From assembly GCF_002854065.1 (NCBI RefSeq), contig NZ_CP024150.1: 64,000 nucleotides of DNA. One strand, written 5' to 3'. Positions 40,901 through 43,900 of this stretch are shown one piece after another. Numbering within the stretch: the stretch's first letter is position 1; each line of letters starts with the position of its first letter. The position numbers were made by a program. This DNA is from Escherichia coli (GTDB taxonomy: Bacteria; Pseudomonadota; Gammaproteobacteria; Enterobacterales; Enterobacteriaceae).

Positions 40901-43900
40901 CCATTCGGGCAAGGGGAAAATATGGTTCGCCGGACGGGGGATTGCCCCCGAGTGGCAGATGAAAAGGGAACTACTTTCGCCAGCTTATACGACTCGCTGG
41001 GCAGATATTCCTGCAGCGAAATTGACTTGAAATTGTGGCGATTTCACCTTGAAATTCTCAACAGAAATAGCTTAATTACAATAAGTTAGATGTGAAATCG
41101 CCGTGGCGAAGTTATTGACTCAAATTTCTATCAAGGACCTCGTTGATAGCTTTGTCCAGTTCATCCTGAACCACTTTTGACATACGGCTAAACTCATAAG
41201 TCAGCGTACGCCCTTTCACACGCTTGCGCGCGAACTTGTCCTTTTCATCAAAGGTCCAGAGTGCGGAAATTACTGACTTTTCCTTAGGAGGCGGAGCTAT
41301 CAATGCCTGAGAGGCCTGAGAAATCAATTTCAGTATACTGGCTTTCTGTTCGTCTTCTGGTCGCTCGTAGTCACTCAAAATTGCATTATGCTGATCTGAG
41401 ACAGATTGAATGAGCCCTTCAGACGTTAAGCCCTTTTCACTGAGTTTTTCATTAACCTCTAACAGAATTTTATAGTCACTAAACGACAGCTCAGACTGAA
41501 CCGGGAACAGAGAAATCAATTCTTGCGGTACTGCTGCCGCCTGCAGTGCCCTGGTGACCTTAGCCTGGGATAACCCCTCCAGTTCAGCAATTTCCTTTTG
41601 ATTGAATCCAGACTCTTTCAGAGCTATCAATCTTAAGCCGATCTCCCGAAGGTTATGCTCTTTAGCTGTCTGGATATCTTTAGCCAGATGGCGAGCTTCA
41701 TCAGCTGATAAAAGTTCAGCGGTAACCATTACATCAAGGCCTGTACGGATATAAATCGCAGAGGCTCGCCGTCTTGAACCATCCAGTATCTCAATCCTTT
41801 CACCTTGCTGAATGCCAATACAGGGGAAGAACTGCTGAAACTTAATAGTCTGGATAATAGATTTCAGAGACTCCCTGGTCAGAGCAAGTTGATCTCTTCC
41901 GTTGGTTTCCTGGTTTACGAATGTCTTACTTTCAACGTCCGATGCAGGTACCCGAACAAACCTGAAGGTTACCTTCCTGCCGGTTTTTAGGGTAAATACC
42001 TGACTTCTTTGGGTGTCAGTCATCTCGACCATTGACGCCTGGGTATTTAACTGTCTGCCAATGGTTTTTCTTTTCTCATTCGACATCACATACCTCCGTT
42101 AGTACGAATGAACTCAATGCGATCAAATACGGCCTTCGCAAAGTCTTCCGCTGCTGATTTTGCGCTTTTAAGCGCCTCGGTGCTTCCATCATAAGTTGCT
42201 GGATTTGCGGAAATAACTGTGTCAAAAGTCTCCCCGCAGCGCTCGAAGCCATCCAGCCTCGGCAGAACCATGTCGAGCATATCGGCACCGAATACCTCTT
42301 TGGCCTGACTATGGCAAATTTTGTGATCAGACTTGTTCAGGATTTTGGACATAAAACCGACGTTTCCGATGAGATTGCAGGTGTGTCCATCCTGTTCGAT
42401 CGAATCAATAAGCGCAGGAAGGCTGGCTACAAACTTCAGGGAAGAATGAAAATCAACCGTTGCCGGTGGAAGAGGGGTCAACATCAGGTCTGCCGCTCCG
42501 ATGCAGTTTTTCAGGAACGCATCGAGGTGAGGACCACTATCAAGGAAGATAAAGTCGTAGTCATACCGGAGCTTGTCGATAATGTTCTCTTTAAGCACTG
42601 CATGAATATTTTGCCCTGGCAGATGTTCCTCACACAATCCCTTCCAGCCTTCAGCAAGGAATGCATCATCAATTGAAGCGGGAATAACATCAACACCCGG
42701 GATAATTGACGGCACGATGAAATCGGACAGTAATTCTTCACGAGACACGTTCTGGAGCATGGCCTGAGCTGCCGTATTTTCAACCAGGCCCACTGAATTC
42801 TCATGGCTCAGGAACATTGTCAGAGATGCCTGCGGATCGAAATCGATGGCCAGAATACGCAGGTCTTCGAACAGAAGCTGAGGATGAGCCCGAAAAGCAT
42901 GGGATAATGAAGCGGTAGAAACTGTCTTGGAACCGCCACCTTTAAGGTTACATACAAAAATAGTGAAGGCTTTATCGAAGCGATCTCTGTACTTGGGTAC
43001 TTTACGATGGAAATACAGATCGATGACGTTCTGAATCGTCATCGCGTACTTCATCGTATTGCCGGAAGGTTTCTTTTTAAAAATGTAGCCACTGGCTTCC
43101 ATTTCGGCCACAGCATACTCAACACTCCCTTTGCTGAGCTTAGGCAGCTTATACAGGGCGGCTTTGCTGTATTCCTGATAGAACTCGGTAAGCTTCAATT
43201 CCTCTTTTTGCTGGCGGATACTTTCGCTCAAGGATGTCAGAAGTTTACCTGCACGTATGGCGACTTTCCGTAACTGCTCAATATTTTCCATTCTTCACCT
43301 CATGACATTTTTTGTCATTTTGAATAAAAAGAATCATGTTGCAAGAAATAATTCATAATATTTTGATTTTGTTCTCACAGAAGGCACCGAAGATTAAATG
43401 GAGAAGAGGGCACTACGTCCACAATCATTTTTTTGACCCACAGCGCAAACCGTGAGTCTGTTCAGAGCTTGCATCTGAGCAGGCGAGGGTTGGACAAGCC
43501 CGACGGGTGCGTCAGCCTGATACATTAAGGTATGTCCCTATGGGATGACCGAAATAGACCGGTCTGACTGAAGACGATCTGGCGCAGATCCGTCACTAAT
43601 CCCTCTATCCTGGCACTCCCTGTCTGGCCATCTGCGAATACTGGTGGGGCAGGGAGGCTCCAAACTCAAGCTCTGCCTGCCACAGCGATTAAACAGCTTC
43701 ATTACCCCCGCGAATTTTCCCGTCAGATGCGCAGTCAGGGGATTTATCTGTCGGCCGCTGTCGTCAAAAGCGACATCGAGGTTGGTCCATGAGAGATAAA
43801 TATCATTGACGCCCGCACTGAGCGCCACGGCATTCCGGCCGGATCATTCCCGATCGCTCAACAAACGGTAGTTGATCTTACCCAGCAATAGTGGACACGC

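Follow-up and report, generated by a model that had tools for sequence, protein, structure and literature searches.

A phage P1-family parABS partition cassette of the pSLT type on an Escherichia coli IncFII plasmid

The window analysed here (64,000 nucleotides, approximately positions 18311-82310 of record NZ_AP027791.1) is part of the Escherichia coli plasmid p2017.06.05CC_1. It contains three intact elements of a partition locus, namely parA, parB and a parS centromere, with both genes on the minus strand and in the order parA-parB followed by parS, which starts 2 nt past the parB stop codon:

42086-43291, minus strand: parA, 401 aa, partition ATPase of type Ia with an HTH at the N-terminus (Pfam, structure match)
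43296-43301, minus strand: parA Shine-Dalgarno sequence GAGGTG (read off the sequence; invariant among relatives)
41112-42086, minus strand: parB, centromere-binding protein, 324 aa (Pfam, structure match)
41027-41109, minus strand: 83-bp parS centromere, occupying the space between parB and umuC, which are convergent (P1 box-and-spacing pattern, alignments)

An original prediction for this DNA had described a P1-type parABS locus with a type Ia ParA carrying an HTH extension, a ParB, heptamers resembling P1 parS and a palindrome upstream of parA, and all four elements were found at or very near the places it had given. The ParA contains the Pfam domains HTH_54 ("ParA helix turn helix domain", E=3.6e-37) and AAA_31 (E=2.7e-19) as well as a deviant Walker A motif (KGGGSKT, residue 117), and it aligns end to end with the P1 ParA structure 3EZ2 (E=1.3e-190, residues 3-398), as expected for a ParA of about 400 aa with an N-terminal HTH extension. 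It is 69.3% identical to P1 ParA and shares 399 of 401 residues with pSLT ParA. The presence of ParB was borne out by Pfam PF08775 (E=4.9e-49, residues 195-320), by the P1 ParB-parS structure chain 1ZX4 (E=1.8e-59, residues 137-322) and by the NCBIfam model parB_part (95.9 bits against a cutoff of 58.45); the protein combines an HTH domain of the P1 type with the family's C-terminal domain for dimerisation and BoxB binding. ParB is 53.7% identical to P1 ParB and shares 315 of 324 residues with pSLT ParB. The parB ATG and the stop codon of parA overlap (TGATG). The dN/dS values for parA and parB range from 0.02 to 0.29 (0.02-0.03 for parA when compared with pSLT and Klebsiella), and both genes are under strong purifying selection.

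The parS centromere reproduces the P1 layout exactly (BoxB1-BoxA1-IHF site-BoxA2-BoxA3-BoxB2-BoxA4) and comprises the following sites:

41104-41109, minus strand: BoxB1, TCGCCA, same as P1 BoxB; invariant in nine relatives
41092-41098, minus strand: BoxA1, ATTTCAC, 5 nt from BoxB1 as in P1
41076-41088, minus strand: putative IHF-like site, TAACTTATTGTAA, fitting YAANNNNTTG (register of the annotated IHF site of P7 parS)
41049-41055, minus strand: BoxA2, ATTTCAA, same as P1 A2
41041-41047, plus strand: BoxA3, inverted heptamer (GTGAAAT on the minus strand; heptamer search, P1 spacing)
41036-41041, minus strand: BoxB2, TCGCCA, species-specificity hexamer, same as P1
41027-41033, minus strand: BoxA4, ATTTCAA, overlapping the umuC stop codon (41028-41030)

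By count alone the heptamer ATTTCAM is at chance level in the window (31 observed, 25.9 expected). However, four copies cluster within 72 bp (41027-41098) directly past the parB stop codon and with P1 spacing, whereas in 200 first-order Markov simulations four copies within 90 bp never occurred and three copies occurred in five. A search pattern derived from the order and spacing of the P1 boxes, TCGCCA-N5-ATTTCAM-N36-ATTTCAM-N-GTGAAATCGCCA-N2-ATTTCAM, matched P1 parS itself and a single place in the 64-kb window, 41027-41109 on the minus strand. Alignment with P1 and P7 parS had been proposed as a check, with non-conserved heptamers counting against the locus; the heptamers proved conserved, since the window parS aligns without gaps to the P1, P7 and pMT1 sites (59 of 83 bases identical to P1). 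Across five relatives, the boxes are conserved and the spacer is variable: 1 of 39 box positions varies compared with 9 of 44 non-box positions (Fisher p=0.016). BoxA3 is invariant, except for its first base, across all eight par systems aligned, BoxA4 is the most variable box among relatives, and the putative IHF-like site, 3 nt past BoxA1 in the same register as in P7 parS, is invariant in nine relatives.

Upstream of parA, three overlapping features were recognised:

43302-43318, no strand: palindrome ATGACATTTTTTGTCAT, ATGACA-N5-TGTCAT, the right half of a larger repeat
43301-43338, minus strand: candidate ParA operator, a 38-bp imperfect inverted repeat with 15-nt arms and loop TCAAAATG (pairing, position)
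43317-43344, minus strand: putative parA promoter, TTGCAA (43339-43344), 16-nt spacer, CAAAAT (43317-43322) (inference from sequence)

The palindrome that had been noticed upstream of parA is present, its 6-bp arms enclosing a 5-nt loop, and lies immediately next to the parA Shine-Dalgarno sequence, but it is perfect in the window copy only (ATGAC..GTCAT in Klebsiella, ATGA..TCAT in pSLT), and the conserved feature is instead the 38-bp repeat that contains it. This repeat, at -47..-10, is conserved in nine relatives. Arm pairing is 11/15 in the window; among eight relatives it is 13/15 in six (three Salmonella plasmids of the pSLT type and three from Klebsiella/Enterobacter hormaechei), 12 in one and 10 in one, and one T:A to C:G double change keeps the pairing between the Salmonella and Klebsiella groups. 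In size and position it matches the annotated P1 parOP repeat (16-nt arms, 14 paired, -54..-13). The 38-bp repeat is a candidate ParA operator that overlaps the putative promoter, which is kept in all nine relatives although its score of 8/12 is below the threshold of the consensus scan. The sole scan match near parA, ATGACA-17-AAGAAT (43318-43290), overlaps the start codon and therefore cannot drive parA. A 32-bp palindrome at 43344-43375 was also considered as an operator and set aside, since by hand comparison pairing in Klebsiella extends to only about 7 of the 16 arm positions. A scan of GTDB genomes with ATTTCANGNTGAAATCGCC gave, among the matches listed, mostly probable chance occurrences and other Erwiniaceae lineages, with no bearing on the operator, and no RNA families were found with Rfam in 38000-46000.

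The closest characterised system is parABS of pSLT, which is 97.2% identical to the window over 2,635 bp. The two do not differ in any of the six parS boxes or in the IHF-like site, and they have the same convergent umuC/samB neighbour with its stop codon inside BoxA4. The central parS spacer differs by four substitutions and the operator-like repeat by three, the latter accounting for the perfect 17-bp palindrome of the window. The host plasmid also differs, being an E. coli IncFII plasmid with ParMR. In pSLT, deletion of parAB lowered plasmid stability ~650-fold (PMC5065971), and disruption of parA led to mislocalisation of the plasmid (PMC7746676).

The family prototype, P1, shares with the window the gene order, the protein architectures, the order and spacing of the parS boxes (83 bp, no indel), BoxB TCGCCA, Asp at ParB position 288 and an imperfect inverted repeat of ~40 bp upstream of parA. 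In contrast, identity between the two is limited to 69% for ParA and 54% for ParB, and the window cassette is unlinked from a P1-type repA and iterons. P1 parB has its own spacer and ribosome-binding site where the window parB overlaps parA, and the operator sequences are unrelated, the candidate operator of the window overlapping the putative -10 and that of P1 lying downstream of the -10. The par system of Shigella flexneri pWR100/pINV is a P1par member (ParB identity 52.5%) that, like the window, has a P1-type BoxB2 (GTGAAATCGCC) and Asp at the 288-equivalent; its parS, however, departs from the usual form in having additional sequence between its two arms as well as BoxB-like hexamers that are duplicated on the left arm, whereas the window parS is collinear with that of P1. 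P7 par and Yersinia pestis pMT1 par share family, parS architecture and spacing with the window but differ in BoxB (TTCCCA in P7, TCACCA in pMT1), in the 288-equivalent (Arg or Asn, plus a two-residue insertion) and in ParB (42-43% identity). In the F sopABC system, too, the ParA carries an N-terminal extension that binds DNA, the operon is autoregulated and the centromere lies downstream; sopC is an array of 43-bp repeats, unlike the BoxA/BoxB/IHF site of the window, and the window proteins scored far below the NCBIfam cutoffs for SopA (59.5 bits against 725) and the SopB-type model (62.1 against 274).

Taken together, these data argue strongly (probability about 0.92) that the cassette is a complete, functional type Ia system for plasmid partition from the P1par family, and that it is this family's pSLT/IncF-plasmid member, located on a mosaic E. 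coli IncFII plasmid. If what is established for P1 par is carried over to the window cassette, ParB dimers would bind parS with their HTH domains reading the BoxA heptamers and their C-terminal dimer domain reading the BoxB hexamers, and IHF would bend the 36-bp central spacer so that both parS arms wrap one ParB complex. This complex would then stimulate nucleoid-bound ParA-ATP, by which sister plasmids would be moved apart, and the parA-parB operon would be repressed by ParA via its N-terminal HTH, with the 38-bp inverted repeat as the most likely site.

The original prediction had also stated that the window holds no replication initiator, and the searches agreed: tblastn of P7 RepA, IncFII RepA and a RepE fragment against the window gave nothing better than E=0.42, and no Rep domain was found in nine annotated hypothetical proteins of the window or in one unannotated ORF upstream of parA. 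The IncFII repA lies at positions 1-858 of the record, and ParM/ParR adjoins this replicon elsewhere on the plasmid. An enterotoxin B subunit is encoded outside the window, and in this respect the host plasmid is ETEC-like. A cassette far from any replicon, with ParMR as a second partition system on the same plasmid, is typical of mosaic F-like plasmids.

Since the plasmid also carries ParM/ParR, the cassette could be redundant, and one might regard it as a decaying passenger from a pSLT/FIB-like segment that has lost its replicon and has no role in inheritance, the plasmid relying on ParMR. Such an origin would fit the lack of a replication initiator within ~38 kb and the comparison with Klebsiella pKPX-2, in which repE lies 766 bp upstream of parA; the upstream homology to pKPX-2 is lost in the window, where an IS3 copy is located at 43873. 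The operator repeat has, in addition, two more mismatches than in six of the eight relatives. However, both ORFs are intact and show the low dN/dS values given above, the parS boxes, the Shine-Dalgarno sequence and a conserved 90-bp promoter block are all intact, pSLT and Salmonella Bareilly plasmids also carry the cassette unlinked from a replicon, and the cassette is the main stability determinant of pSLT (PMC5065971). We therefore consider a passenger status improbable. Even less credible is the idea that the ParB homologue serves chiefly as a transcriptional anti-silencer of the VirB kind on a BoxA-like site and not as a partition protein. Shigella VirB (PDB 3VWB) does match ParB residues 139-258 (E=1.4e-23), but parB is accompanied by a full-length cognate ParA to which it is translationally coupled, a complete parS follows immediately after it, ParB contains the C-terminal dimer domain that binds BoxB, and a partition phenotype is known for the pSLT orthologue (PMC5065971, PMC7746676).

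Within the family, a specificity group can be predicted for the cassette. In PMC10999674, species specificity in the P1par family is attributed to BoxB and ParB residue 288. Both BoxB hexamers of the window are TCGCCA, the P1 type, and the residue matching P1 Asp288 is Asp. The discriminator segment reads FDEKDKFARKRV--KGR in the window and FEDKDRFARKRV--KGR in P1, whereas P7 and pMT1 have Arg or Asn and a 'DP' insertion. Across the systems compared, residue 288 co-varies with BoxB: the window, pSLT, Klebsiella, P1, Shigella pINV and Pantoea all combine Asp with TCGCCA, P7 has Arg alongside TTCCCA, and pMT1 has Asn alongside TCACCA. P7 par and pMT1 par reportedly constitute distinct specificity species, as Youngren et al. 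are said to have described in 2000. Because BoxB and the discriminator are both as in P1, the window system is predicted to share the specificity and partition-incompatibility group of P1; with a ParB just 54% identical to that of P1, shared specificity remains a prediction. A pMT1-type par, suspected from Yersinia plasmids among the megablast matches, was rejected in view of the pMT1 BoxB (TCACCA) and a ParB only 41.6% identical; pMT1 of CO92 shares only an 89-bp upstream block with the window, and in a distant search Yersinia was represented, among the matches listed, by one 48-bp piece upstream of parA.

An alternative, which we regard as possible but rather doubtful, is that the cassette is functional but forms a specificity species of its own, with no productive cross-reaction or partition incompatibility with P1 despite the identical BoxB. 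The divergence of ParB (53.7% identity) would allow this, as would the 24 of 83 parS positions that differ from P1, among them the B1-A1 spacer and the last A4 base, and PMC10999674 (citing Dabrazhynetskaya 2005 and 2009) states that single changes can switch specificity in the family. Against it, BoxB1 and BoxB2 are the same as in P1, and the KDxFARKRVKGR region around P1 residue 288 is conserved and lacks the two-residue insertion of P7 and pMT1. Furthermore, pWR100par, with the same BoxB and a far more divergent parS, reportedly keeps P1 specificity and incompatibility, a result attributed to Sergueev et al. (2005). Finally, P1 GFP-ParB formed discrete foci in Salmonella LT2 only when pSLT was present (PMC4697819, S1 Fig), which also speaks against a separate species. 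The authors of that study described the binding as 'aspecific' and did not assign it to parS (PMC4697819); P1-type specificity determinants on pSLT would explain these foci.

The window parABS is an ordinary segregation cassette of the phage P1 family, real but already known, given its 97% identity to the experimentally characterised pSLT locus. Near-identical loci were found in ~2,500 PLSDB plasmids; among 5,426 complete E. coli genomes, 186 (3.4%) have one, and ~4 co-occurrences with P1-like phage-plasmids would be expected there under independence. No relatives of the window ParB were found in IMG/VR viral contigs. The cassette is also already annotated in public records. As a discovery it carries little weight, considering that thousands of sequenced plasmids share it and that the 97%-identical pSLT orthologue has been characterised genetically; nevertheless, a base-level parS map is now to hand for the widespread pSLT/IncF-type variant.

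We tentatively suggest, as a conjecture that may well prove wrong, that the pSLT/IncF-type centromere falls within the specificity group of P1, so that its carriers are partition-incompatible with P1-like phage-plasmids, acting as a barrier both to lysogeny of the P1 type and to phage-plasmid spread, and giving a background in P1 ParB/parS labelling. If true, the barrier would be one unrecognised so far and would concern Klebsiella, Salmonella, Enterobacter and E. coli plasmids (~2,500 PLSDB records), and the widely used P1 ParB/parS DNA-labelling system would have a background that has gone unnoticed.

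The partition locus in the window is a known and widespread member of the P1par family, which has been experimentally validated on pSLT (NC_003277.2), the virulence plasmid of Salmonella Typhimurium LT2. Its features are as follows.

42086-43291, minus strand: parA, 401 aa (ORF listing and raw sequence)
41112-42086, minus strand: parB, 324 aa with the ATG of PGAP as start
41109 to 41027, minus strand: parS, TCGCCA-CGGCG-ATTTCAC-(36 nt)-ATTTCAA-G-GTGAAAT/CGCCA-CA-ATTTCAA
41076-41088, minus strand: IHF-like 13-mer TAACTTATTGTAA, a sequence match to YAANNNNTTG, one half of the consensus for IHF
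43302-43318: palindrome ATGACA-N5-TGTCAT, abutting the Shine-Dalgarno sequence GAGGTG
43301-43338 (-47 to -10 from the ATG): 38-bp imperfect inverted repeat, CATGATTCTTTTTAT [TCAAAATG] ACAAAAAATGTCATG
43344-43317: putative parA promoter TTGCAA-16-CAAAAT, conserved, scoring 8/12 (below the scan threshold)

In pSLT, parA and parB are PSLT052 and PSLT053, followed by convergent samB and samA. The two loci share 97.2% identity across 2,635 bp, with 399/401 identical residues in ParA and 315/324 in ParB, and all four parS differences fall within the central spacer; judged by sequence, the window locus is the pSLT partition system. The par region of pSLT, whose earliest descriptions are credited to Tinge and Curtiss (1990) and Cerin and Hackett (1993) as cited in PMC5065971 and PMC7746676, is functional: parAB deletion made the plasmid ~650-fold less stable than wild type (PMC5065971), and parA disruption shifted it to nucleoid-free spaces (PMC7746676). 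The original prediction of a P1-type parABS locus is confirmed as an observation, and its interpretation is supported.

With regard to the proteins, Pfam and structure searches agree with the earlier labels of a ParA with HTH extension and a ParB. ParA matched HTH_54 ('ParA helix turn helix domain', E=3.6e-37) and AAA_31 (E=2.7e-19), and its residues 3-398 aligned to the solved P1 ParA structure 3EZ2 (E=1.3e-190), the P7 ParA structure 3EZ9 scoring lower. ParB matched the P1-type ParB family PF08775 (E=4.9e-49), and residues 137-322 aligned to P1 ParB as solved with parS in structure 1ZX4 (E=1.8e-59). The only NCBIfam match above cutoff was a generic ParB domain; the SopA and SopB equivalogs scored far below their cutoffs, so the system is not of the F type. 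The parA stop codon and the parB ATG overlap (TGATG), suggesting translational coupling. The dN/dS values, 0.02-0.03 for parA and 0.10-0.29 for parB, show purifying selection on both.

The heptamer ATTTCAM is not enriched across the 64-kb window (31 copies versus 25.9 expected), but four copies lie inside 72 bp immediately downstream of parB, and four per 90 bp occurred in 0/200 Markov simulations; it is the clustering and not the overall count that matters. The predicted resemblance of these heptamers to P1 parS was borne out, as the P1 pattern of box order and exact spacing (BoxB1, BoxA1, spacer, BoxA2, inverted BoxA3 overlapping BoxB2, BoxA4) matched P1 parS itself and only one site in the window, with 59/83 bases identical to P1 in a gapless alignment. 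MAFFT also aligned the site without gaps to parS of pMT1 and P7, the latter being the reference with annotated boxes and IHF site, and TAACTTATTGTAA lies in the same register as that IHF site. Among five relatives, variation affected 1/39 box positions versus 9/44 non-box positions (Fisher p=0.016). Across nine relatives, no change was seen in B1, B2, A3 or the IHF-like site, and A4 varied most among the boxes, in keeping with the published account of A2-A3-B2 as the essential 'small parS' (PMC10999674).

The parS site fills the gap between convergent parB and umuC, and BoxA4 (41027-41033) contains the umuC stop codon (41028-41030). The par-umuDC linkage is retained in most relatives. ParB spreading from parS would reach the 3' end of umuC, a mutagenic polymerase gene; any regulatory effect is pure speculation. 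A second umuD/umuC-like region (~17716-19218) is 84% identical to the copy adjoining parB (39182-40690); umuD alone is annotated there, so its umuC appears to be truncated or a pseudogene. Because the left arm of parS (41092-41109) forms a small palindrome, TCGCC-AC-GGCGA, its plus strand reads GTGAAATCGCCG, one mismatch from the right-arm A3-B2 composite. This palindrome is absent from P1, and relatives have CGGCG or TGGCG in this spacer.

Upstream of parA, the palindrome originally noted is present, but its perfect form is limited to the window copy (ATGAC..GTCAT in Klebsiella-type relatives, ATGA..TCAT in pSLT), and the conserved feature is the larger 38-bp repeat. Of eight relatives, six have 13/15 arm positions paired, namely three Salmonella plasmids of the pSLT type and three from Klebsiella/Enterobacter hormaechei, and a T:A to C:G double change between these two groups keeps the pairing. 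An E. ludwigii plasmid (12/15), the window (11/15) and E. coli 0H23 (10/15) are intermediate at that position. The identical script recovered the annotated parOP repeat of P1 (16-nt arms, 14 paired, -54 to -13), whose sequence is unrelated but whose geometry is alike; the geometry of the window repeat therefore appears family-typical. The best promoter candidate is TTGCAA-16-CAAAAT, with a -10 element that would lie partly within the repeat. The single promoter-scan match near parA was rejected since it overlaps the start codon; with the putative promoter below threshold, regulation at this site is inferred. Klebsiella homology ends at ~43380, which defines the cassette's upstream edge.

Farther upstream, a ~90-bp non-coding block (43432-43519, 140-230 bp from parA) is 86.5% identical to Yersinia pestis pMT1, unlike the par genes (42-56%). 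In pMT1 it directly follows a RelE/ParE toxin gene, ~120 bp ahead of a resolvase gene; short pieces match many other plasmids, and the block is perhaps what is left of a res site or a promoter. An IS3 copy lies 580 bp upstream of parA, leaving the conserved promoter block undamaged. This copy and a second one in inverted orientation (43873-45131 and 56479-57739, 99.7-99.8% identical) flank an 11.3-kb segment with sodC, nuclease-helicase, RelE/ParE toxin, NadS and resolvase genes, which looks like a composite-transposon-type arrangement adjoining parA.

The window corresponds to ~18311-82310 of E. coli plasmid p2017.06.05CC_1 (NZ_AP027791.1; 99.99% identity). As predicted, it holds no replication initiator by annotation, tblastn (P7 RepA, IncFII RepA and a RepE fragment, best E=0.42) or domain search of the hypothetical proteins tested, which had no Rep domain; IncFII repA and a copy-number regulator are annotated outside it (repA at record positions 1-858). 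The cassette is likewise unlinked from the replicon in pSLT and Salmonella Bareilly plasmids, whereas repE lies 766 bp upstream of parA in Klebsiella pKPX-2, resembling the P1 rep-par arrangement. A type II ParM/ParR system is encoded near the IncFII replicon (record 95367-96682), so the plasmid carries two unrelated partition systems, a frequent situation among F-like mosaic plasmids. Within the window (1-20900) there is a complete iol cluster for myo-inositol catabolism with an ABC transporter, and outside it are enterotoxin B-subunit, type IV pilus and microcin B17 genes; this gene content fits a mosaic virulence plasmid of the ETEC type.

At no less than 80% identity (megablast), the locus occurs in 2,486 PLSDB plasmids, most numerously from Klebsiella, then Salmonella, Enterobacter and Escherichia, and in 186 of 5,426 complete E. 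coli genomes, nearly always plasmid-borne. Among the matches listed in a separate pattern scan of GTDB genomes, many P1-type sites were found on megaplasmid-size contigs (Pantoea, Erwinia, Cedecea, Enterobacter ludwigii and related contigs; loci L038, L044, L045, L058, L065, L066, L071, L077, L078, L080, L081 and L086). Full parS-like sites formed tandem pairs 150-280 bp apart (~210-220 bp in 3/5), and perfect 23-bp palindromes, GGCGATTTCAG-G-CTGAAATCGCC, were scattered on these contigs, which together suggest multi-centromere arrangements inside the family.

In the P1par family, species specificity and partition incompatibility are set by BoxB and ParB residue 288 (summarized in PMC10999674). 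Window ParB is 57% identical to that of a Pantoea megaplasmid, 53.7% to P1, 52.5% to Shigella pINV, 42.9% to P7 and 41.6% to pMT1. BoxB is TCGCCA at both window sites, as in P1, whereas P7 has TTCCCA and pMT1 TCACCA. At the position of P1 Asp288, the window shares Asp with pSLT, Klebsiella, P1, Shigella and Pantoea, and each of these six has a TCGCC-type BoxB2, whereas P7 has Arg and pMT1 Asn, both with a two-residue insertion. We therefore predict P1-type specificity. This is supported by the report that P1 GFP-ParB (from pALA2705) formed discrete foci in LT2 lacking P1 parS and became diffuse after pSLT curing (PMC4697819, main text and S1 Fig). As the authors left the binding site unmapped, we infer cross-recognition with P1 and regard it as fairly likely.

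The locus is already known, widespread and validated; all that is slightly new is that a very common variant is here explicitly, though as a prediction, placed in the P1 specificity group, which, if correct, implies incompatibility with P1-like phage-plasmids.
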